Of a stretch of DNA of 64,000 nt, positions 13,694 through 39,384 are shown piece after piece (positions within the stretch are counted from its first letter, which is position 1; each line of letters starts with the position of its first letter). Source of the stretch: Candidatus Woesearchaeota archaeon (GTDB lineage Archaea > Nanobdellota > Nanobdellia > Pacearchaeales > GW2011-AR1); contig CAZKZO010000001.1 of NCBI GenBank assembly GCA_964557325.1, forward strand, positions 1,159-65,158. The letters run 5' to 3'. Position numbers and translations under genes: made by a program. Under the pieces are notes generated by a model. The model saw only the letters and a list, made by a program, of their open reading frames with translations. It ran no database searches and was not told the DNA's origin.

Positions 13694-14416
13694 TCAGAAT
13701 TTTTTTCCGTTTTTCCACATAAAATCAAAATAACTTTTATATGCCTTAGCAGCAGATTCATTTTCAATAATTATTCCTTCTGGCTCATCTGTCCAAATTA
13801 AAATAGCTATTTTATTTCCATAAATATTTGTAACAGCAGGACTTTCAGTTATTTTAGGAATATATTTGTGATTCTTTGAAGAGATATCTATTTCTTTCCT
13901 ATCTTTCCTACAAACCATATAAGTTTTCATTCCTTTTTCTTTTTTCATTCTAAGAAATTGATATGCAAACTCAGGCATTCTTTCTGAAAACTGCCCTTCA
14001 GAACCAAAAACATAATTATCTTTTCCTTCTTTAATCATATCTAAAAAAATTGTTTTAATTCCTTTAATTCCCTTAAATAATCTTACTTGTCCTTCAATTT
14101 TAGTTCGTTTATGTCTTTCTTGAAGCTCTGGAAGAATTGATCTTATATCTTCTTCTTGCTCTTTTAAATATTCAAGAATTCTTTTAGGGCCTGCAGCTTG
14201 AAACCATTTTACTTTTCCTACAAGAACGTAACTCACAAAACCTTTTTCAAGAAGAAGTTTCAACGCATTATACGCACTACTCCTATCAAGTTTAGCATAC
14301 TTAGCAATCTTTCCCGCCTTGCTTGACCCATAATCATTCAAAACAAGATATACTTTGGCCTCGTTAGGACTCAATCCAATACGCTCAAGAACGTTTTTTG
14401 TTTTATTGACATTCAT
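13694..14416 (-). CDS. TrmB family transcriptional regulator
   Basis: N-terminal wHTH (LSPNEAKVYLVLNDYGSSKAGKIAK...) with a C-terminal effector domain, about 240 aa. Confidence 0.5.
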   Translation of the reverse strand: MNVNKTKNVLERIGLSPNEAKVYLVLNDYGSSKAGKIAKYAKLDRSSAYNALKLLLEKGFVSYVLVGKVKWFQAAGPKRILEYLKEQEEDIRSILPELQERHKRTKIEGQVRLFKGIKGIKTIFLDMIKEGKDNYVFGSEGQFSERMPEFAYQFLRMKKEKGMKTYMVCRKDRKEIDISSKNHKYIPKITESPAVTNIYGNKIAILIWTDEPEGIIIENESAAKAYKSYFDFMWKNGKKF

Positions 14417-14482
14417 GAAAAAGAAAAAGCTCACCTCTTTTTAAATCTGTTGTAGATTTTTCTACTTCAGAATTACGGGAAA

Positions 14483-15124
14483 TTACCTTCTTTTACGGAG
14501 ACCTCTAAAAGCTATGGATTTTGCGTTTGGCCAAACATTTTGATAAAACTCTAACAGCCTTTTTTCTCCAAAAGCCTCAGACAATACATCTCTTGGAAGA
14601 GGGTCAGCAGCTATCTCAATAGTGCCTGTACGCACAAAGTTGCTAGGCAGATCATTTTTTCTATACATTCGATAAGAAGTATATCCTCTAAAGATATTTT
14701 TTTCTCCTAATCCTTCAGTCATAACTTGATGATAAGAAAGACCTTCACTATAAGATCTTCCCGTGATAAGATAGTTTATCGTAGGATTATCAGAAAATGC
14801 TAACGAATAAAACTCCAATGTTCCTTCGTTTAATTCAAGAATCCATCTATGCCTAACATATCCTCCCTCTAAGATATTCTTGCCTTCTTTTAATCCTGCA
14901 GAAGGAATGAACGAATCAAATTCCCCATTTATTATTCCCCTATACAAATCCCGAGAATTTTTGGGATAATCTTTCGGAATTGCTCCTTCATAATTCCTTA
15001 AGAATCCTAAAATACTTTGATCTGCAGGTAAGTGAAAATCAATTCCCAAAATTCCGAACTTTAATTTAGTGGGCCTATGCATCAAATTTCTTTTTTTCCC
15101 TATCCCTTTTAATTCTTCACTCAT
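14483..15124 (-). CDS. Hypothetical protein in the GC-rich island; paralogous to 15848..16303
   Basis: Strong RBS GGAGGTGAAGGAAG before the ATG. Shares the C-terminal motif FGEKRLLEFYQNVWP and a central R.(W/F)I....EG.EF block with the 155-aa protein. Confidence 0.45.
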   Translation of the reverse strand: MSEELKGIGKKRNLMHRPTKLKFGILGIDFHLPADQSILGFLRNYEGAIPKDYPKNSRDLYRGIINGEFDSFIPSAGLKEGKNILEGGYVRHRWILELNEGTLEFYSLAFSDNPTINYLITGRSYSEGLSYHQVMTEGLGEKNIFRGYTSYRMYRKNDLPSNFVRTGTIEIAADPLPRDVLSEAFGEKRLLEFYQNVWPNAKSIAFRGLRKRR

Positions 15125-15196
15125 CTTCCTTCACCTCCCTCCACTCTGTGTAAAAACCCAGAAAATCTAGGTTTGTGTGAATTTTCTTTTCCGTTC

Positions 15197-15349
15197 TCAA
15201 GCCGCAAGTTTTGCTTCAAGTCTTTCAATCTCTTCTGCATATCTTATAGTTGTCTCGCTGTTTAATCTTCTTGGTCCGCAAAGTGTCCTTAATCTTGCCC
15301 AATTTCGCTTCAGCTCAGAGATTTTTGCCTTGATTTCTTCCTGTTGCAT
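15197..15349 (-). CDS. Small (50 aa) coiled-coil protein with a canonical SD
   Basis: GGAGGAAAAACC precedes the ATG; translation MQQEEIKAKISELKRNWARLRTLCGPRRLNSETTIRYAEEIERLEAKLAA. Too short to appear in the supplied ORF track. Confidence 0.35.
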   Translation of the reverse strand: MQQEEIKAKISELKRNWARLRTLCGPRRLNSETTIRYAEEIERLEAKLAA

Positions 15350-15455
15350 GGTTTTTCCTCCATTCTAAAAACTAAACCGTAAAGCTCTACTTAAACCTAT
15401 GTTGTAGAATATTCTTCAACAGAGTTATTTATACTTTCCAAAATGTATTATTCTA

Positions 15456-15845
15456 ATGACAACAAAAGAAAAATACCTCGAGCAGAAAAGAGAAGTAAAA
15501 AATATAGCAAGAAATGTGGGCCGGAAAAAAATAAACGCCTTGGAAGCCGCACTTCAAATAGACAAAACCATAAGGGGAATAACAGGAGTCACCTACAAAA
15601 CAGGAAAAGTTCTCACGATAAGAAACCACAGTAACAAATTCTCCATAGATGAAAGAATTCTCGGTAAAGTTGCATCAGAGCTTGCAGTAATAGGTTACTG
15701 GCGAGCAGAACAAAATGGAAGCAAAGAACCCGGAGAAGTCCACATCGGCAAGGGCTGCAGCACAAAACACTACAAAGAAGGCTTCAGAAACTACCAACAA
15801 CAAGTTCTTCAAGCTTACAATACAGCTGAAAGGAGGTGCGCATAA
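15456..15845 (+). CDS. Hypothetical protein in the GC-rich island
   Basis: 129 aa, very high local GC; its 3-prime end contains the GGAGG RBS of the next gene. Confidence 0.35.
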   Translation: MTTKEKYLEQKREVKNIARNVGRKKINALEAALQIDKTIRGITGVTYKTGKVLTIRNHSNKFSIDERILGKVASELAVIGYWRAEQNGSKEPGEVHIGKGCSTKHYKEGFRNYQQQVLQAYNTAERRCA

Positions 15846-15847
15846 AA

Positions 15848-16303
15848 ATGAATAAAGATGAACAGAGGACTAAAAAAGGGCTTGTTATGAAAATACAAGA
15901 AAAGGATATAAGAATAAATGGGTTTAACCATAAATTTATTGTTGGACATGGAGAAGAAGGACCAGAATTCCACACTTCCTTGCACAGTCCAGAACTAATT
16001 AAAACAATCTGGGCAGATCCTCTTGATAGATTTATAGAGACTACTGAATATATCAGTGAAATCTACCATCAGGAGATTGCAAAAAAAGCAGGAATAGATG
16101 TAGAAAAGAAAGGGCATGTGTTGGGAGGAGGATTCGCAAGATACATTGAATCAGAGAAAACAGTTCAGCTTGAAGGAGAATCTATGCAATACGGTTACAT
16201 ATCTCAAGAATTCTTGAAAGAACATTTTGGAGAAAAAAGACTTTTAGAACTTTATAAAAAGGTTTGGCCTGAAGCAGAAAATCTAAAATACAGTATGGGT
16301 TAA
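15848..16303 (+). CDS. Hypothetical protein, paralog of 14483..15124
   Basis: GGAGGTG RBS 11 nt upstream; C-terminal FGEKRLLELYKKVWPEA shared with the divergent gene. Confidence 0.45.
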   Translation: MNKDEQRTKKGLVMKIQEKDIRINGFNHKFIVGHGEEGPEFHTSLHSPELIKTIWADPLDRFIETTEYISEIYHQEIAKKAGIDVEKKGHVLGGGFARYIESEKTVQLEGESMQYGYISQEFLKEHFGEKRLLELYKKVWPEAENLKYSMG

Positions 16304-25010: not shown

Positions 25011-25490
25011 CTAAACCATGGCCAAAATTTTAAAAGCAATCAAAAACAAATCCGCCAAAACAAAGAAAGTAAATACAATAATTTCTATTCTACCTCCAGT
25101 CCTAATACTTCCTGACAATGTTTTTTTGTAAGGATAAAAAGGTTGTATACCTTTTTTAGTAAAACTATCTGTAAATAAATGCACACTATATCCTAAAAAG
25201 AAAGCAAAAGCCAGAACAGGAATAAACAATGCAAAAAATAAAGTAATTAATAAAAGAAAAATATAGCTATGAAAAAACCCTCTATGATTAACAAAAAATT
25301 GCAATAACCTAAAAGTTTTCTTGTTTCCGGATTTAGAATATTTTGAATCTATATCAGGAATTAAAGTAGCTAAAAAAGCAACTACAACAAAAACTGCTTT
25401 ATTTTCAATATAACTTATAAAAATTAAAACAAAAAATAAAGTAATTGCCAGATGGGTTCTTGTAAGCATTTTATTTTTCAAGTTTTTCAA
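25011..25490 (-). CDS. Membrane-bound metal-dependent hydrolase-like protein (YdjM/DUF457-like)
   Basis: 4 TM helices with conserved His/Asp positions (FFHSYIF, HLFTD). Confidence 0.35.
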   Translation of the reverse strand: MKNLKNKMLTRTHLAITLFFVLIFISYIENKAVFVVVAFLATLIPDIDSKYSKSGNKKTFRLLQFFVNHRGFFHSYIFLLLITLFFALFIPVLAFAFFLGYSVHLFTDSFTKKGIQPFYPYKKTLSGSIRTGGRIEIIVFTFFVLADLFLIAFKILAMV

Positions 25491-26406
25491 GCACTTTATC
25501 TAAATTAACATCTTTTACTTCATTAATAATTAATTCAGTATTATTGAAATAAGAATTATTCCTCACATTACCTGTAAATATCATTTCCTTTCCAAGGATT
25601 TTTTCTTTTTCTTCAATCAAATTTTCAGAATCAAGATTAATGCCTAAATCAGAAATCTTTTCATGAAATAAAACAGCCCTTATTGAATCTGTGCCATCAT
25701 CAATAACAATATTTGTAACAGCTCTTTTTTCAGGAACTACTTTTCCATGCTCCTGACACATAAAATCTTCTCCTTGTTTATTTGCTTTTTTATTACATTC
25801 AGAACATACATAAAAAAATCTTGGCTCAAAACTCTGCACAATAAAAGCTCTTGTACTTGCAGTCTCACCTTTTTTTAGTTCTAAAATTGGTTTTTCATGA
25901 ACTACTCTTTCAGTTTTAACATCTTTAAACTCTTTATCAATAAGCTTTATTTCAGAAAAACTTCCTAAATGAATTTCTCTATCTCTCATGCTTCCATTTA
26001 AAATCTCAATAGAACTTTCTTCTTTTATCTCACCTTTTTCAATTAAAGAAATAAGATTAGTATCCCATATCACAACTTTTATATTTGAAGTTTCATCACC
26101 TAATAAAAGATTGACAACTTTACTTTCTTCACCTTTTTTTGTCTGAAAAGTTCTTATAGGGGAAATAGAAATTACCTTTCCACTTGTATTTGCATTTCTC
26201 ATACCTGGCAAAAGCTCATCAATCTTAAGATTTTCATTCTCAAAACTTACATTTAATTCAGCAGCAACTACTTGAGCTGCACCTTCTTTACTAATCAATC
26301 CAGAAAGCTTTGCTCTTTTGGCCTCAACTCTTCTTTCTACTTCTTCCTTTTTAAGTTTTGCAGAATCAGCAATCTTCTGCAAAATCTTCTCATAATTTCC
26401 CTGCAT
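25471..26406 (-). CDS. rpa: Replication protein A-like ssDNA-binding protein (OB folds plus zinc ribbon)
   Basis: OB-fold-like segments and a C4 zinc ribbon CSECNKK...CQEHG. Start placed at MQGNYE. Confidence 0.5.
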   Translation of the reverse strand: MQGNYEKILQKIADSAKLKKEEVERRVEAKRAKLSGLISKEGAAQVVAAELNVSFENENLKIDELLPGMRNANTSGKVISISPIRTFQTKKGEESKVVNLLLGDETSNIKVVIWDTNLISLIEKGEIKEESSIEILNGSMRDREIHLGSFSEIKLIDKEFKDVKTERVVHEKPILELKKGETASTRAFIVQSFEPRFFYVCSECNKKANKQGEDFMCQEHGKVVPEKRAVTNIVIDDGTDSIRAVLFHEKISDLGINLDSENLIEEKEKILGKEMIFTGNVRNNSYFNNTELIINEVKDVNLDKVLEKLEK

Positions 26407-26494
26407 TTTAAACTTCTTTAAAATAAAACACTTTTTCTTTTTAAGTATTATGCAAACCAACAAGCTTTATAAACAATCTTAATTAAAATAAACC

Positions 26495-27452: not shown

Positions 27453-28331
27453 TTAAAAACCAAGAGATATTCCTGAAAAATAAAAAAACATTAAAACTAA
27501 AAAAGTAATTAAAAAAACAGGACTAAAGGCAATTCCTTTTCTTATCTTAATTTTTTTCTTTCTCTTTTTTAAAATAGAAATCTCTTTTTTGCTTAATCCA
27601 TGCCAAGAAGGAATGATTTTTTTATCTTTGAATTTCACATTTTGATAAAGCCAATCTCCTTCTCTTAAATATTTAGGAGAAACATTTTCTACCATAATAC
27701 CTTCATCAATTGATTTGGCATAAACATGAAGCCATGGAAAAATAAAAAACAAGATTCCAAGATAAATCAAAACCCAATGAAATAAAACTCCTCCTAAAGC
27801 AATTAATACTGCAAAACCTAACATCCAAGTATAAACCCTCCTATATTTTCTAAATTGTTTTGAAAACTCTTTTTTGAATTTTCTTGGATTTTTCAGTGCA
27901 ATTCTCAAACTAATAATTAAAGTATAAATAGCTCCTATAAACAAAAATATAATTAAAAAATCAGTAAATAAATTAAAATTCTCATAGAAATTATTTGAAA
28001 AAGGCAATATAGCTCCAAAAGCCATCATTAACTTAGCATCACCACCTGCAAAAACTCTGCTATAATAAAGAATACTTCCTATTAAAAAAAATACACCTAA
28101 TCCAATTACTCCTTGATAAAAAAATCCAAAACTTCCTCCAAATAAAGAATAAAAAAACCTATACCCTAAAGCAAAAATAATCAAAGAAAAATTAAGCCAA
28201 TTTGCAATTTCATTTGTTTTCAAATCCTGCATAACTGCGAAAACAACCCAAACCAATGCCAACACCCATAAAAAAATAATTTCATGCATCCTTAAAAAAA
28301 GAATTAACAATTTATAAATTATTACAATCAA
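27453..28331 (-). CDS. Type IV prepilin / preflagellin peptidase (A24 family, PibD/FlaK-like)
   Basis: Polytopic membrane protein with both catalytic Asp motifs (MQDLKTNEIANW and AGGDAKLMMAFG). Confidence 0.6.
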   Translation of the reverse strand: MIVIIYKLLILFLRMHEIIFLWVLALVWVVFAVMQDLKTNEIANWLNFSLIIFALGYRFFYSLFGGSFGFFYQGVIGLGVFFLIGSILYYSRVFAGGDAKLMMAFGAILPFSNNFYENFNLFTDFLIIFLFIGAIYTLIISLRIALKNPRKFKKEFSKQFRKYRRVYTWMLGFAVLIALGGVLFHWVLIYLGILFFIFPWLHVYAKSIDEGIMVENVSPKYLREGDWLYQNVKFKDKKIIPSWHGLSKKEISILKKRKKKIKIRKGIAFSPVFLITFLVLMFFYFSGISLGF

Positions 28332-28540
28332 ACATTTAAAATAAAGCTCTTGCTACAAACTCCTTATTTATTTTTCTTTTTACTGCCTTCACCTCTACTT
28401 CTTTCTTTTCCTCCTTTCTTATAAGGATGTTTTTTATTTTCCTTTTTCTTATCTTTACGCTTTTTACGCTTTTGAGGCATTGCATATTCCATAATTAAAA
28501 TAATAGAATTAGGTTTAAATAATTTAGGTTAAAAATAAAA

Positions 28541-28876
28541 TTATTCACAATCTACTGCAGGACAATCACTAAATCCATAATTAGAATAGTCTTCTGCAAA
28601 TTCTTTACAAGTTCCAAAGACCTCATCTTCTCCTTCTGCTTTTAAACTCCTCTGTAAAGTACAAAAATCATAAACACTTTGTGTTGCACAAGCTGTTTCA
28701 CAAGAAGTCACTACAGTATCAACATTATTATTTGAAAGCCATGGGGCAAGTTTATTCCAACCCAGGGTAAATCCTGCAATAAGAATAACTAAAACTATCA
28801 CAGCAAGAACAATTAATACAATTGCATTTGTACTCAAACCCTGACCTCTTTTATTCAGCATATTTAACTCAAGCAT
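28541..28876 (-). CDS. Pilin-like protein with a class III signal peptide
   Basis: MLNKRGQG-LSTNAIVLIVLAVIVLVIL, followed by a Cys-rich C-terminal domain. Confidence 0.5.
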   Translation of the reverse strand: MLELNMLNKRGQGLSTNAIVLIVLAVIVLVILIAGFTLGWNKLAPWLSNNNVDTVVTSCETACATQSVYDFCTLQRSLKAEGEDEVFGTCKEFAEDYSNYGFSDCPAVDCE

Positions 28877-28906
28877 AATTTATTTATAAAACTTTCTTAT
28901 TAGACA

Positions 28907-29200
28907 CTAATCAACATAATACTTAACACGAACATTTCCTTTTCTAATCTCAAGATATTTTCCTTCTACATCTGACTTTAGAAGTATTTCTCCTTGAACC
29001 AAATTTGTTTCACCCAATTCTCCATAAACATTTAATTTTTCCTTTTGTATTTTTATTTCCTCAACAATAAAAACATCTGAAAATGCTTTTTTTGTATTTT
29101 GGCTTGAAATGGAAAAGCTCAAAATAGCTAAACCACAAAGAATAACTACACCTATCACTAAAATTATCACAGGTATATTTGCTTTTTTATTTAGTTTCAT
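28907..29200 (-). CDS. Pilin-like protein (KKA-N class III signal)
   Basis: MKLNKKANIPVIILVIGVVIL. Confidence 0.4.
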   Translation of the reverse strand: MKLNKKANIPVIILVIGVVILCGLAILSFSISSQNTKKAFSDVFIVEEIKIQKEKLNVYGELGETNLVQGEILLKSDVEGKYLEIRKGNVRVKYYVD

Positions 29201-29678
29201 ATTTTAACATAACCACCTCTAAAGTTTTATTTTGATTTAATTTTATATTTTCAAAAGAATAAGCATAATCTGTTTTTGTTGTTTTGCCTTCAATAGATGT
29301 TTTTGGTTTGTTCCCAAAAAAATAATTCTTTATATCACTCAACCCAAAATCATAAACAACACCAACCCAAACATCTTTAGGGTAATCTTCTAAGAAAAAA
29401 CCTTCAAAAACCTGTAAAGCCAAATTTCCTGTAAAATTTGTTAAATTTCCTGAAGATTTAATTTCATCATAAACTCTTTTATCTTCTGTAAGCAAATAAG
29501 AAAAAAAAGATTTTGAAACCAAAGTATCTTTTTTTGAAAAACTTTCCACAGGTTTATCTGCAAAAACATTAACTGTCAATAAAAGTGAAATTCCTAAAAT
29601 AAAAACTATAATCAAAGTTGCAACCATCCATGTGATTGTTGATGCTATTTGTGCTTTTTTATTAAACCTATTAAACAT
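29187..29678 (-). CDS. Pilin-like protein (KKA-Q class III signal)
   Basis: NKKAQIASTITWMVATLIIVFIL. Confidence 0.4.
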   Translation of the reverse strand: MFNRFNKKAQIASTITWMVATLIIVFILGISLLLTVNVFADKPVESFSKKDTLVSKSFFSYLLTEDKRVYDEIKSSGNLTNFTGNLALQVFEGFFLEDYPKDVWVGVVYDFGLSDIKNYFFGNKPKTSIEGKTTKTDYAYSFENIKLNQNKTLEVVMLKYETK

Positions 29679-30180
29679 TTTTCTCCACTTTTCCTACAAC
29701 ACTTAAAATTCTAATATCATATTTATTTCCTTGTTTATCAATACTATAAAAATTTCTTTCCAAACAAAAAGGCAAACCCTCTCCTTTAATACTGCAAAAA
29801 TCTTTAAAATTTTCATTACCTTTATTGACCTTTAATAGTATTCCAGGATTTGCAGTATCAAACTCTCTTACTTCAGCTTCAACATAAAACTGCTCTTGTT
29901 CTTTCCAGCCATATACATCTTCTGTTTCAAAATTCAAGTTACATTTTTGCATAAAATTTTCTTGATTCATACCCTTTAAATCAGCCAAATATCCTGAATC
30001 TGTCAAACATTCTGCAATTTTATCAGTTAAAATGTCTGCTTCAATTTCTCTTACATCATAAGGATTTCCATAAAAAACAGCAGTCATATAAACTATGGCA
30101 GCAGCAACAATAAATAAAATTACAAACCAATAAACTGAAATTACTTTTTCTCCTTTTTTGCCTTTAACTGATTTCATCAT
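29671..30180 (-). CDS. Pilin-like / pilus-associated membrane-anchored protein
   Basis: Basic N-terminus KGKKGEK followed by a TM helix. Confidence 0.35.
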   Translation of the reverse strand: MMKSVKGKKGEKVISVYWFVILFIVAAAIVYMTAVFYGNPYDVREIEADILTDKIAECLTDSGYLADLKGMNQENFMQKCNLNFETEDVYGWKEQEQFYVEAEVREFDTANPGILLKVNKGNENFKDFCSIKGEGLPFCLERNFYSIDKQGNKYDIRILSVVGKVEKNV

Positions 30181-30569
30181 TTGATTACAAAATAATAATC
30201 CTCCATACTTGTTGTATTAAAAACAGGATTTACAGAAACATCATTAAAAAAAGAATACTCATAACCTGTATCTTTACTTAACTGGACTCTTACAATATTT
30301 CTCTCTATCTGTAATATTTCATCAGAACTAATACTTTTTTCTTTTTTATTAATAGCCTTTTTCATATTAATCTGAATAAGCATCCCTGGCTCAGCAGAAT
30401 CAATAAGTAATGCAACTTCTTTTGCATATCTTTCTTCTAAAACAGCAACACTACTTGTTTTGGCAGTTAAAAAAACAAGAAGAATTACAATAAAAGCCAG
30501 ATTCAAAATAATAAAAATTATGTTTTCTACTAAAATATTTGCTTTTTTATTTTTTGGCTTTATTTTCAT
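30177..30569 (-). CDS. Pilin-like protein (KKA-NILVE, Glu at +5)
   Basis: NKKANILVENIIFIILNLAFIV; Glu at +5 after the predicted cleavage site, as in type IV pilins. Confidence 0.45.
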   Translation of the reverse strand: MKIKPKNKKANILVENIIFIILNLAFIVILLVFLTAKTSSVAVLEERYAKEVALLIDSAEPGMLIQINMKKAINKKEKSISSDEILQIERNIVRVQLSKDTGYEYSFFNDVSVNPVFNTTSMEDYYFVIK

Positions 30570-30596
30570 TTTTCAACACCTTATAATATGTAATTG

Positions 30597-31346
30597 TTAA
30601 GCTTTAGTTATAAATTCATCACATTTTGTTGAAGAAGTTTCAGAAGTTTGTACTAAAAAAACACTTAAAACATCATCAGAATTTAAGCCACCTACACCCC
30701 AATTAGCATCCATTCCAGTTAAAACAGATTGCTTTTCACTTAAATTAATTAAACCATTTTTATCAAAATTAAAAACACCTGCCCCTTTAACCTTTTCAAT
30801 ATCAATATTTCCATAAAGATAATTATAATATGTTTGAGAATTTTCTTTTTTAGTGGTTTTCAAATAATTAATAAATTCAGCATAATTTATTGAACCAATT
30901 TCTTGTTCAAGAGAAGAATCAAAATCAACTACAGAACAAATTGCGCATTGCTTTGATGTAGAAGTTTTGCTCACATATCCTGCATTACCTTCTCCAAACA
31001 TCCACCAACAATCAGCCATTTCTTCAGCAAGAGATTTCATTATTTGCTCTTTTTTATTTAAATTATCTAATACTTTAACAGTTATATCAGGATTTATCTT
31101 TTCACAATCTCTTTCTCCAGAAACACAGACATATGTTGTCCTACAATCTAAAGAACCTGAAGAAAAATCATTATTTGATTTTAAAATAACAGAATTATGA
31201 CATATTTCTTTATTTGTGGTTTTTCCTAAATCCAATCTAAAAAATAAAAAAAGTATTACAGAAAAACTAAGTATAAGTATTACTAAACCAACTATTTGCT
31301 TTGTTGTCATTTCTGCTTTTTTACCATTAAATAAATTAAATTCCAT
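30597..31346 (-). CDS. Pilus-associated Cys-rich protein with an N-terminal signal anchor
   Basis: NGKKAEMTTKQIVGLVILIL..., then a Cys-rich ectodomain. Confidence 0.35.
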   Translation of the reverse strand: MEFNLFNGKKAEMTTKQIVGLVILILSFSVILFLFFRLDLGKTTNKEICHNSVILKSNNDFSSGSLDCRTTYVCVSGERDCEKINPDITVKVLDNLNKKEQIMKSLAEEMADCWWMFGEGNAGYVSKTSTSKQCAICSVVDFDSSLEQEIGSINYAEFINYLKTTKKENSQTYYNYLYGNIDIEKVKGAGVFNFDKNGLINLSEKQSVLTGMDANWGVGGLNSDDVLSVFLVQTSETSSTKCDEFITKA

Positions 31347-31446
31347 TACATCACTCCAAATTGTTTAAGCATAAAATACATTCCAGTAAGTGCTATTCCA
31401 AAAAACACTATCCAAATTAAATATTTTATGAATTCATCTAAGTCCA

Positions 31447-31911
31447 TTATTTTTTTATTATTTGTTTATTTTGATAATCTATTTCCAAAATCACAGGAGG
31501 GTTTTTTATTTCTATATTTTGCCCTAATTTGTATTCTGACTCTCTACAAACACTTTTTTTATCACATTCTTCAATTCTTGACTTAAAAACCATATTCTTA
31601 CAAATGCAAATGCAATCTTGCATTCCTTGTACAGAACAGGATAAAGGCATGTTGTTTCCTTGTGGCCATGAACTAACAAACCAACCTTTAGGATTATAAA
31701 TCTCAATTTCACTTAAACCTGCATCAATACCTTCAATAATATAATCTAAAGATTCTTCAGCTAACTCGAGCTCTTTTGAATCCTTATTAGTATTATAAAT
31801 TGAAAAAAGAAAGTAAACTAAAAGTGATACAGCAATTACACCTATTATCAATTTTAAACTTTCTTCTGCAAGTAAAAACCCTTTTTTATTTGATATCATT
31901 TTAAACCCCAA
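31447..31911 (-). CDS. Type IV pilin-like protein (KKG-FLLAEE)
   Basis: NKKGFLLAEESLKLIIGVIAV: the G-F cleavage motif with Glu at +5, then a hydrophobic helix. Confidence 0.5.
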   Translation of the reverse strand: MGFKMISNKKGFLLAEESLKLIIGVIAVSLLVYFLFSIYNTNKDSKELELAEESLDYIIEGIDAGLSEIEIYNPKGWFVSSWPQGNNMPLSCSVQGMQDCICICKNMVFKSRIEECDKKSVCRESEYKLGQNIEIKNPPVILEIDYQNKQIIKK

Positions 31912-32059
31912 TTAAAGCAAGTAAAATATTTCCTGTCTGATTTGTTTTGAAAAAATCAAAAACATAATTTTGGAAAAAACTATACAACCCAAACACAACA
32001 ACACCCACTACTAAAACTCCTATGATTATTTTTATCAAATTACTAATTGTTAATTCCAT
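31901..32059 (-). CDS. Small hydrophobic protein (52 aa) in the pilus operon
   Basis: MELTISNLIKIIIGVLVVGVVVFGLYSFF...; overlaps the downstream pilin start. Not in the supplied ORF track. Confidence 0.25.
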   Translation of the reverse strand: MELTISNLIKIIIGVLVVGVVVFGLYSFFQNYVFDFFKTNQTGNILLALIGV

Positions 32060-32060
32060 T

Positions 32061-32213
32061 TTAAGGGAAAATATTTTTTAAGTTATCTACCAAAGAAATT
32101 CCTTTATCTTTAAGCACTAAAATTGCAATAACTAAAATAGCTAACACAGCTACTGCAAGCAAAACCCAGGGCAAATAATCTGAAATAATACCTCTTTTAT
32201 CATTTAATTGCAT
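32061..32213 (-). CDS. Mini-pilin (50 aa) with a KRG class III signal
   Basis: MQLNDKRG-IISDYLPWVLLAVAVLAILVIAILVL. Not in the supplied ORF track. Confidence 0.4.
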   Translation of the reverse strand: MQLNDKRGIISDYLPWVLLAVAVLAILVIAILVLKDKGISLVDNLKNIFP

Positions 32214-32249
32214 ATAAAAAAAAGCAATAAAGAATTAATAAACTTAACC

Positions 32250-34400
32250 CTAAACTAAATTACCTAAAACAACAGAGGCTAAAATAAACAATGCCATACT
32301 AGTTACAAGAGAAGTTATAAAAAACAATAACATTCCTTTATTCAAATTTTTTCCTGTTTTATGGGTTTTCTGAAGCTTGTCTTCACCTGCATCAATTGCA
32401 ACCAAAGCACCTGTCAAAATAAAAATAATTTGAATCAAATACAATCCTACAATTAATTGCAAATAATAAGGAGGGATCATAGAAGTTACATCAAAAATAT
32501 TAATTATATTTCCTAAATTTCCTGTAATTTCCTGTCCAGCAAGTTCAGATAATTTAAGTCGTGTAAGTATAGTTGTAATCATAGCAGCTAAACCAACAAC
32601 TACTCCTGAAAGAAGCGGAGCAAGAAAGCTCATATTGGATTTCATATCAGAAATAATTCCTGCCAGCATATCTTTTAACCTATTAGTAATTTTTTGAATA
32701 TTTTTCGCATATTCTGAAATACTCATCAAACTTACTGCAGCAATTTTAAGTCCTTTTTTCACAGATTCAATAAGAATCCTCATACTTGTAGCAATTAAAT
32801 CAGAGGGATAAAAATTAATAGCTCCTCTTTTTTTATCAAAAATAGCTCTTTCTACATCCATCCCCATCTGCCTTATATTATAATTAACTCTTCTAAAAAA
32901 ATCTCCTGTTTCCAAACCTTTAGAAGATTCTGCAACTTTTCCAAAAGCTATTTCAGGAGGTAAGCCATTTCCAATCCTATTTCCAAGCTGGAATAAAGAA
33001 TTATTAAATTCTTTTTCAAGTTGTTTAGTTTTAGTTCTCTCTTTTATAAGTTCTTTTGTCCTGTCTTTAAAAGAAACAGAAAAGAATAATGCAATACCCA
33101 AAGGAATAAACAAACTCAAAAATAAAGCACCCATTCCAAAAGGTCCTGTAATGCCTTGAGAAGTTTCCAAAAACCCAAATATTTTTTCATCACCAAAAAA
33201 CCCTAAACCAAGCTGTGTAAAAGTTAAATCTTTAGAAACACCTATCCATTCAGCAACAGGAGTATAATTAAAAATTAAAGGAAGTAACCCTATTAAAATC
33301 AAAGGCAAAGCAATCACTGCTCCTATTATATAAGATTTTTTACTTTTGTATTTTGGATAAAGAGGGTTTCTTTCCAAAAGCTGAGATTCTCCATGTCCAC
33401 CTGGTCTTAAAAATAAAACCTTATCAATAAGGTAAAATACTAAAAAAGGAATTATTAAATTAAATAAAATAAATACATGAACTGTTTTTAAAATCCCCCC
33501 AAGCATTGCAGAAGCAAGAGGAAGTAAAGCTAAACCTAAAGTAGGAAGAACTACTCCAAGCATATAAACATTAGTCAAAGGACTTTTTACCTCGTGAGTA
33601 AATCTAAGCATTTTATCATAAACACCATCTAAAACAACTTTCAGGGATTTTTCCAAAGTTCTTATTCTTCTTGAATTATCTGGCTCAAACAAACTGCTTT
33701 CTATAAGATGGAATGCTTCAATGAATTCAACAGAATAATCTCTCCAAATTTCCAGATAATTATCAAGGCTTTCTTTAATGGTTGAAAATTTTCCAACCTG
33801 AACATTATAAAAAACTTTTTTAAAATCAAGTGCTAAAGGATATTCAAGATTTTCAGAGGCAAATGCAATTGCTCTTTCTAAATTAGGTGTATGCCTCATA
33901 TAAACCACAATATAAAGGATAGCTGGAACCATTTGACTACTTGCTTTAAGCCGCCATTTATTTGCAAGTCTTTGAGGATATCTATTCATAAAATAAAACA
34001 CAAAAATTGACAAAACCGCAGACAAAAGAAAAAATACTGCAGGAATAGTATCTGTAATCAAAAATACTGCAGCAGAAATTATTAATCCAATAAAAAATAT
34101 GCTTAAAAAAGAGATAACACTTAAAGTTAAAGGCTGCCATTCTTCCAAATCCAAATGTGCAATCCTTAAACTTTTTCTTACTTTTTTCTTATCTTTTTCA
34201 GAAACATTAAGCTTAATCAAACTCCCAAGACTTTTACACCATTTTTCATAACGAGAAATATCAGGAGCCATTTCTTTTTTGAAATTAACATAAGACATAC
34301 TATAATTAGAACTTTTTGTCGTAGGTGTTGAAGAAATTTTACCTTCAAGCTTTCCACTATATTTTCTTAAAATATCTTTAACATCTTTATCTTTTGTCAT
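32250..34400 (-). CDS. TadC/FlaJ-like polytopic membrane platform protein (T2SS-F domain family), unusually long at 716 aa
   Basis: Alternating TM clusters and cytoplasmic helical domains; located between the pilins and the secretion ATPase. Confidence 0.5.
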   Translation of the reverse strand: MTKDKDVKDILRKYSGKLEGKISSTPTTKSSNYSMSYVNFKKEMAPDISRYEKWCKSLGSLIKLNVSEKDKKKVRKSLRIAHLDLEEWQPLTLSVISFLSIFFIGLIISAAVFLITDTIPAVFFLLSAVLSIFVFYFMNRYPQRLANKWRLKASSQMVPAILYIVVYMRHTPNLERAIAFASENLEYPLALDFKKVFYNVQVGKFSTIKESLDNYLEIWRDYSVEFIEAFHLIESSLFEPDNSRRIRTLEKSLKVVLDGVYDKMLRFTHEVKSPLTNVYMLGVVLPTLGLALLPLASAMLGGILKTVHVFILFNLIIPFLVFYLIDKVLFLRPGGHGESQLLERNPLYPKYKSKKSYIIGAVIALPLILIGLLPLIFNYTPVAEWIGVSKDLTFTQLGLGFFGDEKIFGFLETSQGITGPFGMGALFLSLFIPLGIALFFSVSFKDRTKELIKERTKTKQLEKEFNNSLFQLGNRIGNGLPPEIAFGKVAESSKGLETGDFFRRVNYNIRQMGMDVERAIFDKKRGAINFYPSDLIATSMRILIESVKKGLKIAAVSLMSISEYAKNIQKITNRLKDMLAGIISDMKSNMSFLAPLLSGVVVGLAAMITTILTRLKLSELAGQEITGNLGNIINIFDVTSMIPPYYLQLIVGLYLIQIIFILTGALVAIDAGEDKLQKTHKTGKNLNKGMLLFFITSLVTSMALFILASVVLGNLV

Positions 34401-34414
34401 AATTTTTCCCTTTT

Positions 34415-34900
34415 TTATTTATTATAAAGGTTTAATAATTTAATAAACTTATTTCTATAGGTTTTTATTTCTTCATTTGTTAATTTTGATATAAAATCAA
34501 GTAAATAAGCATTAAAATCCTCTGCAAGAAATATCAACTTTCTCGCCTCTTGAATTTCTATTTGAAAATTTAAATGATATTGTGTCTGTATCCTTTCTTT
34601 TTTTGCAAATAAAATACTTGTATTCTCTAATTCAAAAAGTCTTTTTAAAAGCATAATAGATGCTGTATGATTTTCACTTTTTATTCCTATTTTAAACAAA
34701 AGTGCTAATAATGAATTATACATACTATAATAAATTAAAGAAATAGCTTCTTCAAATTTTTTATTTTCCAATAATATTTTAGCAGAAGACAAATTACTTT
34801 CTAATTTTTTTAAATAAGAGTTTTTAATTATATTGCTAGGTTCAACTAATTTTATCTTTTTCTGCTTTTTTATCTTATTCAAAAAATTTATATCTTTCAT
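34415..34900 (-). CDS. HEPN domain protein (putative toxin of a HEPN/MNT pair)
   Basis: All-alpha, about 160 aa; overlaps the upstream NTase gene by 26 nt, in the canonical MNT-then-HEPN order. Confidence 0.45.
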   Translation of the reverse strand: MKDINFLNKIKKQKKIKLVEPSNIIKNSYLKKLESNLSSAKILLENKKFEEAISLIYYSMYNSLLALLFKIGIKSENHTASIMLLKRLFELENTSILFAKKERIQTQYHLNFQIEIQEARKLIFLAEDFNAYLLDFISKLTNEEIKTYRNKFIKLLNLYNK

Positions 34901-35423
34901 AAAAAGTTTCCACTCCTTTTATTATCACATGATTTTTTTCTATTTCTTTTATTAAAGAATTATTTTTATCATATTTACCAATTTTTATATTAATCTTTGA
35001 ATTAAATGCCTCGATTTCTTTTTTTAAATTTAAACTAGTTGTTTCCACATATATATCGATGTCACTACTTTTATTTGCAGAGAATTTTGCATAAGAGCCA
35101 AATAAAATCGCAATTTTAATTTTAGAATTTCCTTGAATCTTTTCAATAATATTTCTTAAATAAGGGTATGCCTCTAAAAGTTTTTTTAGTTTATAATTTT
35201 CAGTCATAAAAACATATGTTTTTGCTTCTGTTGTTTGTTTTAAAAAATAAATTTTGTTTTTTCCTTCTTCAAAATAATCCAAAACATTCTCTTTATAAAG
35301 TTCATTAAGTTTCCTCAAAACAGTTGTGTGGTTAGTATTAAGTTTTTTTGCTAAAGCTCTTACATGTGTTTTTTTATTCAATAATACATTAAGAATTTCA
35401 AGTTTGTAATCCTTTCGTTCCAT
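34875..35423 (-). CDS. wHTH-fused minimal nucleotidyltransferase (MNT) antitoxin
   Basis: N-terminal wHTH (THVRALAKKLNTNHTTVLRKLNEL) and an NTase motif ILFGSYAKFSANKSSDIDIYVET (GS...SDxD). Confidence 0.6.
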   Translation of the reverse strand: MERKDYKLEILNVLLNKKTHVRALAKKLNTNHTTVLRKLNELYKENVLDYFEEGKNKIYFLKQTTEAKTYVFMTENYKLKKLLEAYPYLRNIIEKIQGNSKIKIAILFGSYAKFSANKSSDIDIYVETTSLNLKKEIEAFNSKINIKIGKYDKNNSLIKEIEKNHVIIKGVETFYERYKFFE

Positions 35424-35485
35424 GTGGAATATATATGTTCCAATATTTATAAACTTTTGTCATTAAAATTAGAATAGATTTGGGG

Positions 35486-35698
35486 TTAAAAAGAACTTAA
35501 AAAAATGACTCTCTTTTCCAACTCATCTAATTCTCTTAAAGTTAAACATTTACAACCATCACAATTAATATAAATTCTATCTATCTCTTCAGCTCTTCTT
35601 TTTCGCACATACTCTGTTGTAATTTCTCCAGGTTTAACATCTTCTATTTCAGCTATTTTTCTTGAAACATAATATTCTAAAGATTCTTCTCTTCTCAT
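35486..35698 (-). CDS. Small hypothetical protein (CDGCKC motif)
   Basis: 70 aa, between the ATPase and the MNT gene. Confidence 0.25.
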   Translation of the reverse strand: MRREESLEYYVSRKIAEIEDVKPGEITTEYVRKRRAEEIDRIYINCDGCKCLTLRELDELEKRVIFLSSF

Positions 35699-35722
35699 TT
35701 TAAAATTATCAAAATTATTTAT

Positions 35723-38011
35723 TTATATCTTTCTCTTCTTCACTTCCTCATTCAACCATTTCTGCCATTCAGGAAAAACCCTTTCAGACATAGGCAAACC
35801 AGTTTCCTCTCTAATTTCATCAGAAATTCTATGAAAAGCATGATTAGAATCAACTGTAAATTGAGCTTCAAGCAAATCAGGATTTTTTGATTTTTCAGCA
35901 ACTTCCACAATTGCTTTTTTTATCTTCCCTCTTAATAAAATATTATCATAAACAGCATCCCAATTACCAGCCCATCCTTTAACATTTGAAGCAATTCCTT
36001 TTAAAATCTCACTATCTCCATTAATCAAATCTTCACTCGGAACTAACTCATCTTTCTCTACATCATAATTCAATAAATCAACAAATCCTTTCTCTTCTAA
36101 AGGATCTTTTTTCCAGTGCTTTCTTACTTCAGACAAACGAACTAAACGCTTCCATGAATGCAACCCATCAGATGATTTAATAGGGTTTGCAACTGCAATT
36201 ATGTCTGTTGCTTTAAAACTTGTAGCAGGTACATTTAAATCATTTACAACTCTATCAAAAACAGCATAAGGACTTGCACCATGGATGGTTCCTGCAACCA
36301 CATTTGCCAAAGCACCAACCCTCATAGCCTCATACAAGGCCCTAGCTTCTGAGCTTCTTACCTCACCAATAATTAAACTTGAATCTCCAAGCCTCAAACT
36401 TGTTCTAATACCATCTTCTGCAGAAACTTCTGTAGTTGTTTTAAGCAAAGCAGAACGAACTTTCATTCTTAAAATATCATACTTTAATTTTCTCAAAGAT
36501 TCAACAGGCAGTTCTAAAGAATCTTCAATTACAATAACCCTATATTTTGGAATAATCTCAAGCATTAGACTTCCTAAAAGAGAAGATTTTCCACTACTCC
36601 TTGTTCCAGCAACAAGCATAGTTCTTGAACCATCAATTAAAAAACTTAATAATCCTGCAGTATAGGAATTAATCATTTTATTCTTAATAAATAAAGGTAA
36701 TGTCCATGGTTCTTCTCTATGTCTTCTTATAGCATAAGCCAAACCATCTGGACTTAAAGGTTCTTGAATAATTGCAATTCTTGCTCTTAATTTTCCAATA
36801 TCTAACTGAGTATCTAAAATAGGATTTGCTTCATCTAAAGGTCTTCCAGAAATTAAACGAAATTTAGCTGCCCAAGAATCAACATCTTCCTGACTAGGAA
36901 TTATATTAGTCGAACATTCATCAAAATCCTGATGCCTTACAAAAACAGGAATTCTTGAAATAGGTGCATTTAATGAAATATCTTGTAAGTTTTTATCCTG
37001 TAATAAAACCTCTATTAATCCAAATCCAATTGTATGTCTAACAAGAATAGAAGCAAGAGTATTTAACTCAGAATAATTAATTTTTATATTCTTGCTTTTA
37101 GCTAAATCCTGAAGTAAATCTTTTGAAATATTAAAAAAAACCTGTCTTACCCTTTCTGTATCTGTAAACTCTTCTGATTTTGGCTGGTGCTCTATCAACA
37201 CACTTCTTGCCATATTCAGCAGAGAATTAAATTCTTCACTTAAATTATTTTCAGGAGGAGATAAATGATAAATTAATTTAGGTTCTTCTTTTTTCCTTAG
37301 AAGAGTAACTAAAGATACATCGCTTTCACCAGAAGATATCTTGTATTGGTCAACAATTTCAGCACCATCAGGTAAGTCCGGAACAAGTCGTGTAAATGTA
37401 AAATTAGGAATTGTATCTGGCTTAAAAATTTTATAATAAATATCTCTCTGTCCTTTTTGATAACCTACAAGATAAGGCTCTGCATTTTTGATAATTTTTG
37501 TTTCTCTCATCATGTCTTTGATTTTTTCCAAAAGAGAAATATAATTTGACTGGTCTGACTTAAATACAGGCTGGATTTTTTCATAAAGAATCTTTGCTTC
37601 TACAATTAATTTCTTTATTTCTGCATAAGCTGCAACAGGATCTTGCTTTAAAAGAATTAAAAAAGAAAACATTTCATTATATCTTTTTTTAAAAAACTGT
37701 TCATTTTTAGAAGCAAGTTTTTCTTTGGAAAATATTTTTTCCTGTTTAAAAAGATAAACATAAAGCTGTGCAATTTCCAAAAGCATATTTGTCTCTTTTA
37801 TATCATAATTATAATTTTTCTGCTGAACAAAAACAATTCTTGAAACATTTGGATTTTCCATCAAAGCATCAACAGTATGTTCCATTACTCTAGGATTTTC
37901 AGCAAGACTGGGCACAAAACCTGCTCCAGAGTAATTAATATAAAGAATATCTTCGCCTCCTTTTCTTTCAACCTTATAAGAATATATAGGTTCACCTTTT
38001 TCAAATTGCAT
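35723..38011 (-). CDS. Type II/IV secretion ATPase (FlaI/TadA/VirB11 family) with a ~350-aa N-terminal extension
   Basis: Walker A GTRSSGKSS, Walker B VIVIEDSLEL, Asp box, His box (RLGDSSLIIGEVRSSEA...GTIHG). Confidence 0.65.
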   Translation of the reverse strand: MQFEKGEPIYSYKVERKGGEDILYINYSGAGFVPSLAENPRVMEHTVDALMENPNVSRIVFVQQKNYNYDIKETNMLLEIAQLYVYLFKQEKIFSKEKLASKNEQFFKKRYNEMFSFLILLKQDPVAAYAEIKKLIVEAKILYEKIQPVFKSDQSNYISLLEKIKDMMRETKIIKNAEPYLVGYQKGQRDIYYKIFKPDTIPNFTFTRLVPDLPDGAEIVDQYKISSGESDVSLVTLLRKKEEPKLIYHLSPPENNLSEEFNSLLNMARSVLIEHQPKSEEFTDTERVRQVFFNISKDLLQDLAKSKNIKINYSELNTLASILVRHTIGFGLIEVLLQDKNLQDISLNAPISRIPVFVRHQDFDECSTNIIPSQEDVDSWAAKFRLISGRPLDEANPILDTQLDIGKLRARIAIIQEPLSPDGLAYAIRRHREEPWTLPLFIKNKMINSYTAGLLSFLIDGSRTMLVAGTRSSGKSSLLGSLMLEIIPKYRVIVIEDSLELPVESLRKLKYDILRMKVRSALLKTTTEVSAEDGIRTSLRLGDSSLIIGEVRSSEARALYEAMRVGALANVVAGTIHGASPYAVFDRVVNDLNVPATSFKATDIIAVANPIKSSDGLHSWKRLVRLSEVRKHWKKDPLEEKGFVDLLNYDVEKDELVPSEDLINGDSEILKGIASNVKGWAGNWDAVYDNILLRGKIKKAIVEVAEKSKNPDLLEAQFTVDSNHAFHRISDEIREETGLPMSERVFPEWQKWLNEEVKKRKI

Positions 38012-38099: not shown

Positions 38100-38438
38100 A
38101 TGGCAGAAAAACAAGAATATCATCCAGATTCTTATTTAAACGAGTCTGTAATAAAAATAAGAAGTTTAGAAGAAAAACAAAGAATGCTTAAAGACAGACT
38201 TCTTTTAATAGGAGAAAATCTTATTGAAATCCGTGAAAAACAAAAACAGGAAATAATTGAAATTAAAAAAGAATTAGAGATAATAAAAAGAAACATGGAG
38301 CGTTTAACAGGATTTCTAGAAACAGCTTCATCAGAATTTTCAAACTTTGCAAGAAAAGAAGATGTTGAAATACTTGCAAAACAAGCAAAAATATTTCAAC
38401 CATTAGAAATAAGAAGAAAAAAAGATTTAAAAAAATGA
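38100..38438 (+). CDS. Coiled-coil protein
   Basis: Heptad-rich EIREKQKQEIIEIKKELEIIKRNMERL. Confidence 0.3.
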   Translation: MAEKQEYHPDSYLNESVIKIRSLEEKQRMLKDRLLLIGENLIEIREKQKQEIIEIKKELEIIKRNMERLTGFLETASSEFSNFARKEDVEILAKQAKIFQPLEIRRKKDLKK

Positions 38439-38454
38439 AAAACCTTAAATTAAG

Positions 38455-39384
38455 ATGGGATTATTAGATGAAGTTGCTGCCTTGAAAAATAAAGGATTTT
38501 CTGAACAACAAATAATCAACAAACTCCAGGAAAGTGGAAATTCGCCTAAAGAAATTAAAGATGCTTTAGGAAGAGCACAAATAAAAAATGCTGTTTCAAG
38601 CCAAGACAATAAAACCCAAGAACTTGAAGCTTCTATAATGACTCAAGACCCTCAAAAACAAAAAACAAAAAAACAAAACAAACAAACTCAACAACAAAAA
38701 CCTTATCCAGGAGAAGGAGAACTTCAACCTCCTGCTCCAATATCTAAAATAAAAAAGGAGAATTACATGCCATCTACACAAGAAATAAATCAAGGACAAC
38801 AAACACAAGAAATAGGAAACACTGAGCAAAACTATCAAGAAAGCGGACAAGCACAACAAGCACAACAAGAAAGCCCTCAACAAACACAAGATTATCAAGG
38901 ATATGAAGAATATGCTTCTCAAATACCTTCTCCAAACCAAGAATATTATCCTCAAGAACAATATGATACAGGATATGGATATGATTATGCAAGTATGACT
39001 GACACAGATACTATGATTGAAATTGCAGAACAAGTATTTACTGAAAAAATGAAAAAAACATTAAAACAAGTAGATGAGCTTACAGAATTTAAAACACTTG
39101 CTGAATCAAAAATAGAAAATATTTCTGATCGATTAAAAAGAATAGAATCGCAAATAGACAATCTGCAAATCACTATTCTTGAAAAAATAGGATCTTATGG
39201 AAGAGGAATTGATACTGTTAAAAAAGAAATGAAAATGGTTGAAGATTCGTTTGAAAAAGTAATGTCTGGTTTAAGTGCAGAAAAAACCCATAAAAAATCC
39301 AAAAAAACTACAAAAAGAAAATCAAAATCAAAAAAATCTCATTCTAAATCAAAGAAAAAGAAATCTAAGAAAAGTAAAAAATAA
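38455..39384 (+). CDS. Q/Y-rich low-complexity (prion-like) protein with a coiled coil and a poly-Lys/Ser C-terminus
   Basis: Central QQTQEIGNTEQNYQESGQAQQAQQESPQQTQDYQGYEEY...YDTGYGYDYA region. C-terminal KSKKTTKRKSKSKKSHSKSKKKKSKKSKK. Confidence 0.4.
   Translation: MGLLDEVAALKNKGFSEQQIINKLQESGNSPKEIKDALGRAQIKNAVSSQDNKTQELEASIMTQDPQKQKTKKQNKQTQQQKPYPGEGELQPPAPISKIKKENYMPSTQEINQGQQTQEIGNTEQNYQESGQAQQAQQESPQQTQDYQGYEEYASQIPSPNQEYYPQEQYDTGYGYDYASMTDTDTMIEIAEQVFTEKMKKTLKQVDELTEFKTLAESKIENISDRLKRIESQIDNLQITILEKIGSYGRGIDTVKKEMKMVEDSFEKVMSGLSAEKTHKKSKKTTKRKSKSKKSHSKSKKKKSKKSKK

Follow-up and report, generated by a model that had tools for sequence, protein, structure and literature searches.

What kind of machine is encoded by the genes that occupy the minus strand at positions 27453-38011 of a 64,000-nucleotide stretch of contig CAZKZO010000001.1, from a Candidatus Woesearchaeota archaeon (hereafter the window)? 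The initial annotation, made from the letters alone, had seen a type IV pilus or Tad-like locus in a DPANN genome, and the minus-strand open reading frames (ORFs) on which it relied do exist. We found that the locus encodes all four classes of protein that define the core of the type IV filament superfamily, namely a secretion ATPase, a T2SSF-type membrane platform, an A24 prepilin peptidase, and substrates with class III signals, and each class was verified in turn, as described below. We consider it likely, with a probability of roughly 0.8, that the region is an operon for building a type IV filament (type IV pilus-like), in the form typical of its lineage, in a DPANN archaeon of the Pacearchaeota/Woesearchaeota type. 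The identities of the components, their signal motifs, their conservation across species, and the gene order are direct observations. The system is of an already known kind, and its gene series was previously undescribed in the papers on archaeal filaments that we compared.

The window is AT-rich (about 28% GC) and also carries tRNAs and housekeeping genes. All features described here lie on its minus strand unless stated otherwise. In transcription order, from 38011 to 27453, the locus encodes the ATPase (762 amino acids, aa), orf70 (70 aa), a winged helix-turn-helix (wHTH) nucleotidyltransferase (182 aa), a HEPN protein (161 aa), the platform (716 aa), ten small proteins (p50, p52, p150, o33, p249, p130, p169, p163, p97, and p111, with lengths of 50, 52, 150, 33, 249, 130, 169, 163, 97, and ~106 aa), o42 (42 aa), and the peptidase (278 aa). 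The junctions within the small-gene block overlap or leave gaps of 1 nt (TAATG, TAAAATG), which fits a single, translationally coupled operon.

The assembly ATPase (35723-38011) belongs to the GspE/FlaI/TadA secretion-ATPase superfamily. It matched the Pfam family T2SSE at E=1.6e-12 (47.3 bits, cut-off 24.9), and among NCBIfam models it scored highest against FlaI (3e-35; 121.9 bits, cut-off 550) and TadA (1.3e-34; 120 bits, cut-off 373). Because both of these scores, at ~120 bits, fall far under their cut-offs, the protein sits within the superfamily and in neither named family. The match to the NCBIfam model of the bindosome ATPase BasE was weak (6.9e-19) and ranked below FlaI, TadA, and the Archaeoglobus fulgidus GspE (afGspE). 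In a sequence search of the PDB, afGspE (2oap) came first among the solved relatives (4e-31), CpaF second (1.8e-23), and FlaI third. The Walker A motif (GTRSSGKS469), the Walker B/Asp box (VIVIED492), and the His box (TIH575) are all present, and these secretion-ATPase motifs, together with the significant T2SSE profile match, bear out the first reading of the protein as an ATPase of the FlaI/TadA kind.

Along its length, the ATPase divides into a lineage-specific N-terminal region (residues ~1-200), a GspE-like N domain (~210-400), and the ATPase core (~418-700). The N-terminal extension had at first been put at ~350 aa, an overestimate that was read from the start of the Pfam core. Since the alignment with 2oap spans residues 210-645, only the ~200 aa of residues 1-200 are left unexplained. 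An AlphaFold2 (AF2) model of residues 1-300 was confident over residues 1-195, where it predicts a beta-beta-alpha-beta-beta unit followed by a helical bundle. A Foldseek comparison of this model with the PDB gave no credible match (best E=0.25, TM-score at most 0.27), and when residues 1-205 served as a sequence query, the matches were limited to 111 fragmentary Nanoarchaeota/Pacearchaeota proteins, with no other context. As modeled, the N-domain appears to be a fold orphan, and we regard it as a novel lead. The full-length ATPase has 5302 homologues, and the top 120 of these are nearly all 760-762 aa long and 74-79% identical. In the closest relative (locus L003, CAZDCI010000011.1), the ATPase (P0286) measures 1287 aa and contains an intein (Pfam Intein_splicing and LAGLIDADG_3), being otherwise 79% identical.

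The second core component is a polytopic membrane protein of 716 aa (32250-34400) with two T2SSF-type cytoplasmic helical bundles, at residues ~140-270 and ~445-590. Its close homologues number in the thousands, those listed being 714-732 aa long and from Nanoarchaeota/Pacearchaeota assemblies, and the family comprises 1050 cluster representatives at the 50% level. Among 53 diverse full-length relatives, 18 matched Pfam T2SSF, with matches in both halves of the protein and a best E value of 3.2e-10. One relative (P0250) reached 30.4 bits for a cut-off of 25.2, and scans of individual relatives located one complete T2SSF domain at about 134-280, in the N half, and a second at about 425-511, in the C half. 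With the family profile as query, the cytoplasmic domains of GspF were the sole matches in the PDB, at a weak E=0.15. An AF2 model built from a diverse alignment (predicted local distance difference test score, pLDDT, 86; predicted TM-score, pTM, 0.83) was matched by Foldseek to the cytoplasmic domains of EpsF and OutF (probability 0.99-1.0, TM-score 0.68-0.75, root mean square deviation about 3 A). The internal repeat between the N and C halves is weak (hhalign E=0.0019, probability 14%), and the two-domain reading hence rests on the T2SSF matches in the relatives. We conclude that the 716-aa protein is, by the domains of its relatives and by its predicted fold, a two-domain GspF/PilC/FlaJ-type platform, whose sequence seems to have drifted past Pfam's reach. 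Its earlier description as TadC/FlaJ-like stands in this form, through the relatives and the model, and not as a direct T2SSF match of the window protein.

The third component, at the downstream end of the locus, is an A24 (FlaK/PibD-type) class III signal peptidase (27453-28289) with ~5-6 transmembrane (TM) helices and a basic soluble insert. The ORF itself extends over 27453-28331, and the likelier start is the ATG at 28289, which yields the 278-aa protein found in public gene calls. It matched Pfam Peptidase_A24 at 1.6e-11 (45 bits, cut-off 26.5) and NCBIfam FlaK at 1e-9 (38 bits, cut-off 330). Both catalytic aspartates that the initial annotation had pointed to were recovered, in the motifs MQD22L and GGD84 (numbering of the 278-aa protein).

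For the fourth component, the substrates, a class III signal was called, as a surrogate for FlaFind, wherever the regular expression [KR][GA] matched at most a few residues ahead of a 15-mer of strong hydrophobicity. Across the 64-kb window, 10 of 137 ORFs were positive, eight of them contiguous at 28.5-32.2 kb; the other two are large proteins with ordinary Sec-type signals. The Gly or Ala at position -1 and the Lys or Arg at position -2 were kept in the orthologues of about 50 other genomes, where the leader ranged from 2 to about 15 residues. A cleavage motif that is kept while leader length varies is the pattern expected of class III signals. The short ORFs with such a signal and a hydrophobic helix were thus real, as was the Glu at +5 noticed in several of them (KKG/FLLAE and KKA/NILVE, with the slash marking the cleavage site), whereas the count of about nine pilins was not: there are eight canonical class III proteins, and p52 lacks a [KR][GA] site.

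The first of the eight is p50 (KRG/IISDYLPW; 32061-32213), a class III pilin whose mature part of ~42 aa would consist of a TM helix and a short amphipathic tail. In an alignment of 26 orthologues, its Gly at -1 was invariant, the basic leaders varied in length, and [DE][YF]LPW was conserved. It is followed by p150/p154 (KKG/FLLAEESLK with Glu at +5; 31447-31899, with public gene calls beginning at the ATG at 31899), by p249 (KKA/EMTTKQ; 30597-31346), which bears a Cys-rich extracytoplasmic domain with eight conserved Cys, and by p130 (KKA/NILVEN, again with Glu at +5; 30177-30569). Then come p169 (KKG/EKVISVYWF; 29671-30180), with four conserved Cys, p163 (KKA/QIASTITW; 29187-29678), p97 (KKA/NIPVIILV; 28907-29200), and p111 (KRG/QGLSTNAIVLIVL; 28541-28876, start probably at 28861, giving 106 aa), a small Cys-rich globular domain protein with five conserved Cys and a T-rich tract after its stop codon. 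All eight were called by the scan and keep the motif in their orthologues. The mature N-termini are conserved as G/[IV][IV][SA][DE]YLPW in p50, G/FLLAEETLK in p150, G/ELTTKQ in p249, [GA]/NILTEN in p130, G/DKIISVYWF in p169, [GA]/Q.GET.TW in p163, [GA]/DIPVTILV in p97, and G/QGLSTNAI in p111.

The conserved Cys in the C-terminal domains of p249, p169, and p111 fit an extracellular location. Family profiles of these three found nothing significant in the PDB, the orthologue sets of p50 (all 26) and p111 found nothing significant among the Pfam pilin families, and none of the class III families resembled, by sequence, a solved structure or any Pfam pilin family. We take p50 as the probable major subunit, with p111 as an alternative candidate. 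By its sequence features, p249 is a candidate minor pilin or tip subunit and, by analogy with other filaments, p249 and p169, as well as p150, p130, p163, and p97, are probably minor, priming, or tip subunits.

How far this gene set extends beyond the window was examined with a scan of one genome per GTDB species, for which a 10-sequence alignment of the platform served as the query. A platform relative was present in at least 555 GTDB species genomes, and we kept 80 loci, which are labelled Pacearchaeota, Woesearchaeota, or Nanoarchaeota, a few evident mislabels aside. Gene content was counted with tblastn, the downstream counts being taken over the 50 loci with at least 7 kb of downstream sequence. 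All 13 genes from platform to peptidase were found in 36 of these 50 loci, and they were colinear on one strand in 39 of 50; the ATPase lay upstream on the same strand in 55 of 60. The ATPase is nearly always 760-762 aa long and the platform 714-732 aa, and dozens of species-level genomes repeat this gene series. Accordingly, the size of these two proteins and the number of pilins, which had been thought unusual, are the lineage norm. In two loci (L029, 12268-14197, and L035, 12307-16699), the pilin block is replaced by other genes, some glycosyltransferase-like by appearance, with o42, the peptidase, and the downstream synteny kept. The flanking HIT, EF-1beta, and OB-fold RPA-like genes are likewise syntenic; the last of these (25471-26463), about 1 kb downstream of the peptidase, encodes a protein with OB-fold (tRNA_anti-codon) and DUF2240 domains. 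Since housekeeping flanks are syntenic too, adjacency is weak evidence here, and the functional argument rests on component identity.

Sequence divergence differed strongly among the components. Median identity to the window proteins was 74% for the ATPase and 68% for the platform, followed by o42 (62%), o33 (61%), the RPA-like protein (59%), p50 (58%), p52 (55%), EF-1beta (54%), the peptidase (52%), p130 and p111 (49% each), HIT (46%), p169 (42%), p249 (41%), p97 (40%), p150 (36%), and p163 (35%). These values suggest that the motor is under unusually strong constraint and that the exposed subunits evolve fast. The operon is among the best-conserved gene sets of Pacearchaeota and Woesearchaeota, which are abundant archaea that depend on hosts and remain uncultured; the higher conservation of ATPase and platform relative to the neighboring EF-1beta argues that the filament is central to their lifestyle.

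By analogy with characterized archaeal and bacterial type IV filament systems, the operon would work as follows. The eight precursors, with their short basic leaders, would insert into the membrane, where the operon's own A24 aspartyl peptidase would cleave them after the conserved Gly or Ala. A hexameric ATPase would dock onto the two cytoplasmic T2SSF bundles of the 716-aa platform, and ATP would then drive the mature subunits from the membrane into a helical filament.

Several points weigh against a filament operon. In direct sequence searches of Pfam, NCBIfam, and the PDB, the window platform gave no T2SSF match, and neither it nor any of the pilin-like proteins directly matched a pilus family in these libraries. 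Within the locus, we identified no retraction ATPase, adhesin domain, or DNA-uptake channel. Leader cleavage, filament assembly, the choice of major pilin, and the role of the filament are all predictions from the genes. Finally, a preprint describes type IV pilus components as missing from DPANN genomes (10.1101/2020.05.14.094862), an absence that we would attribute to the insensitivity of annotation. Routine annotation misses the platform and all of the pilins, and standard hidden Markov model libraries catch only the ATPase and the peptidase, so that surveys call pili absent from DPANN archaea or call the genes an archaellum. The supposed absence of pili from DPANN archaea has then been used to call ultra-small cells seen by electron cryomicroscopy bacteria. 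The gene series and motifs described here permit such data to be read anew, with p50, p111, and p249 as candidate filament or adhesin subunits.

Compared with known systems, the locus shares the general plan of archaeal filaments and differs in its details from the types compared below. Archaeal type IV filament systems are built on a four-component core (PMC4858521; 10.64898/2026.04.22.720090), their ATPases carry subsystem-specific extra N-terminal domains (10.64898/2026.04.22.720090), and DPANN archaea are mentioned only briefly, under System 1, 4A, and Aap-like (PMC4858521; 10.64898/2026.04.22.720090). The core set, the extra ATPase N-domain, and the many co-located pilins of our locus agree with these surveys (Makarova 2016; Sivabalasarma & Albers 2026), whereas its gene series is undescribed there, we could assign it to no named subsystem, and its pilins match no library model. 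The Epd pilus of Methanococcus maripaludis, a System 1 filament, is likewise encoded by a long operon on one strand, with many minor pilins and a peptidase of its own, and the candidate major pilin p50 resembles in size and shape the very short EpdE (arCOG06620) of that system, which has no globular head. However, System 1 is characterized by two platform genes (10.64898/2026.04.22.720090), of the EpdJ/EpdK type in Epd, where our locus has a single two-domain platform gene of 716-730 aa, and the peptidase seems closer to the shorter FlaK/PibD form than to the 9-TM EppA.

The resemblance to bacterial Tad/Flp pili, which had given the locus its first name, lies in the rank of CpaF as the second-best solved relative of the ATPase (1.8e-23), in the size of p50, and in the acidic residue and Tyr that follow its cleaved Gly (G/IISDY). 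Flp pilins carry the motif G/xxxxEY, and the pair is shifted by one position in p50. The difference is that a single fused-type platform replaces TadB and TadC and that outer-membrane components are absent; none of the 26 p50 orthologues matched Flp_Fap, and the ATPase stayed under the TadA threshold (120 versus 373 bits). The label Tad-like thus survives as a resemblance and fails as a class assignment. The A. fulgidus GspE aligns with our ATPase including its N-terminal domain, as the best solved relative, and differs from it by the ~200 extra N-terminal residues found here.

Two members of the small-gene block depart from the class III pattern. The single-TM protein p52 (52 aa, MELTISNLIK...; 31901-32059) has no class III site, and its N-terminus resembles that of a mature pilin; its paralogue o33, a leaderless mini TM protein of 33 aa (MDLDEFIKYLIWIVFF..., MDLDEFIKYLIW...; 31346-31447), was absent from the initial annotation. 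For both proteins, no possible start codon lies between the preceding stop and the ATG. We found p52 in 52-57 loci and o33 in 54-55. An hhalign comparison of the p52 and o33 families gave a probability of 94.5% (E=7.9e-8), and p52, from its third residue on, aligned with the mature N-terminus of the p111 family at 89% (E=2e-6), compared with 0.2-17% for control pairs of TM segments from the operon. The gene that takes the place of o33 in two divergent loci, L006 and L038, does have a class III leader (MKNRG/ or MNKKA/). These comparisons of short hydrophobic sequences suggest that p52 and o33 are pilin-N-terminus-like proteins that lost their leader, and by analogy they probably act within the membrane as accessory or priming subunits for which no processing is needed.

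It is conceivable, although we hold it to be on the unlikely side, that the locus represents a distinct, unclassified archaeal filament subtype, in which the leaderless p52 and o33, with their acidic N-termini (M-D-L-D-E5 in o33), would enter the filament without the peptidase and the ATPase would act with its fold-orphan N-domain of ~200 aa. The leaderless pilin-like proteins and the ATPase N-domain are in any case the novel leads offered by the locus.

What would the filament be used for? That an extracellular filament is assembled is a well-supported prediction. Use in attachment to surfaces or to a host cell is most likely, given the DPANN lifestyle and the fast-evolving, Cys-stabilized exposed subunits, and DNA capture would be a compatible second use. 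The sequence does not discriminate between adhesion and DNA capture. The best-surviving alternative goes further and holds that the locus encodes a competence-type pilus mainly for DNA uptake, which would supply an organism of reduced biosynthetic capacity with nucleotides or genes. Monoderm ComG operons have a similar order of ATPase, platform, short pilin, several minor pilins, and peptidase, and the gene order here resembles theirs. An OB-fold DNA-binding protein is encoded 1 kb downstream in conserved synteny. Moreover, natural transformation of M. maripaludis requires Epd pili, a transposon screen having hit epdJ/K/L and eppA (PMC10133366), and this requirement keeps DNA capture a live alternative. 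Yet family scans of the locus found no ComEC/ComEA-like or TctA-like gene, the OB-fold neighbor looks like a replication RPA among housekeeping genes and is probably close by coincidence, and nothing links the pilins to DNA binding. We therefore assign DNA uptake as the main function a minor, though not negligible, share of the probability.

A filament for adhesion or host contact is also to be preferred to a short pseudopilus or bindosome-like assembly that would serve secretion or nutrient capture instead of forming a long adhesive pilus. Such an assembly would agree with the many distinct class III proteins with globular Cys-stabilized domains, with the presence of only one very short pilin, and with the weak BasE match of the ATPase (6.9e-19), and it has been proposed that proteins with class III signals adapt archaeal filament machineries to substrate scavenging (10.64898/2026.04.22.720090). 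But BasE ranks under FlaI, TadA, and afGspE, and Pfam and NCBIfam searches found no substrate-binding-protein domain in the class III proteins, so that we regard this option as unlikely.

The locus is not a single uninterrupted run of pilus genes. Between ATPase and platform, three genes at 34415-35698 form a patchy insertion unrelated to pili: orf70 (70 aa; 35486-35698), which has no family match, a 182-aa protein with a wHTH domain and a Pol-beta-type nucleotidyltransferase (MNT/MntA-like antitoxin; 34875-35423), and a 161-aa HEPN protein (HepT-like toxin partner; 34415-34900), whose gene overlaps the MNT gene by 26 nt. The nucleotidyltransferase matched Pfam Polbeta (1e-9; 38.9 bits, cut-off 26.9) and NTP_transf_2 (3e-6), and more weakly NCBIfam MntA (4.3e-7; 29.8 bits, under the cut-off of 60). 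The HEPN protein matched its Pfam family at 3.5e-8 (34.1 bits, cut-off 22) and shows the Rx5H motif ERIQTQYH in its translation. By these family matches, the two are identified as an MNT-HEPN (type VII-like) toxin-antitoxin pair of uncertain subfamily. A perfect palindrome, GGAACATATATATTCC (35426-35441), lies just upstream of the MNT start and adjoins a TTTATAAATA box, and the wHTH domain might use the palindrome as an operator for autoregulation.

In other genomes, orf70 occurred in one locus only besides L001, which is the window's own DNA, and a clear MNT homologue (64-69% identity), together with HEPN, was seen at the corresponding site in just three further loci (L014, L037, and L054), all of them non-closest relatives. 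The ATPase-platform gap measures 37-200 bp in 23 of 59 loci and 0.25-6.8 kb in the rest (1.3 kb in the window), and the platform-p50 junction is a second variable site, both junctions being insertion hot spots across the lineage. Searches for insertion scars or target duplications around the insert, by BLAST against uninterrupted relatives and by repeat search, returned only AT-rich chance matches. One might suppose that the toxin-antitoxin insertion disables the operon here by uncoupling the ATPase from the platform and pilin genes, as the 1.3-kb insert brings its own TATA-like sequence and palindrome and splits genes that are adjacent in 23 of 59 relatives. This is very unlikely: the insert breaks no pilus gene, all pilus ORFs are intact and full length, the inserted genes lie on the same strand, and other genomes with a complete gene set commonly carry insertions of 0.3-6.8 kb at this junction.

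The least probable reading of all is an archaellum (motility) locus, which would agree with FlaI and FlaK as best NCBIfam matches of ATPase and peptidase and with a Woesearchaeota study that annotates flaB/H/I/J/K and reads them as archaellum genes (PMC11606122), whereas both scores fall far below their cut-offs, afGspE and then CpaF outrank FlaI in the PDB, and no ORF of the locus matched FlaB, FlaF/G, FlaH, or FlaCDE/X in Pfam or NCBIfam.

Directly upstream of the peptidase, wherever both genes were detected, lies o42 (28364-28492), a very basic ORF of 42 aa. It belongs to a conserved family of 33-45 aa found in 46 loci, with the consensus MDYxxSxKRNKRKDKKKEKKKHPYKKGG..R, and it had no match in Pfam, NCBIfam, or the PDB, the last including a profile search. 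In L029 and L035, it stays with the peptidase though the pilin block is absent, and whether it belongs to the pilus system is uncertain. As a hyper-basic peptide next to the peptidase, o42 is a weaker lead for novelty.

Distant relatives of the platform also stand next to class III proteins. In L083, the platform gene is followed by genes for a mini TM protein and a short class III pilin. In L085 (12082-22115, GCA_038999725.1), where the platform is about 26% identical, it is followed by a long run that holds at least five class III proteins of the MKG/ or MKA/ type and giant adhesin-like proteins, and the cluster includes a 1020-aa Flg_new_2 protein, a protein with a metalloprotease motif, and a VWA protein. 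The whole has the appearance of a pilus-adhesin cluster of much greater size, built around the same platform family.

Elsewhere in the window, the GC content rises to 0.355 at 14001-16000, against a background of about 0.28, and no rRNA or other Rfam family matched this segment at gathering thresholds. On the plus strand, divergent from the ATPase, positions 38100-39384 encode two proteins of 112 and 309 aa without a significant family match, the longer of which has a Q/E-rich low-complexity center and a Lys-rich tail. In L002, the position of this pair holds ORFs of about the same size.

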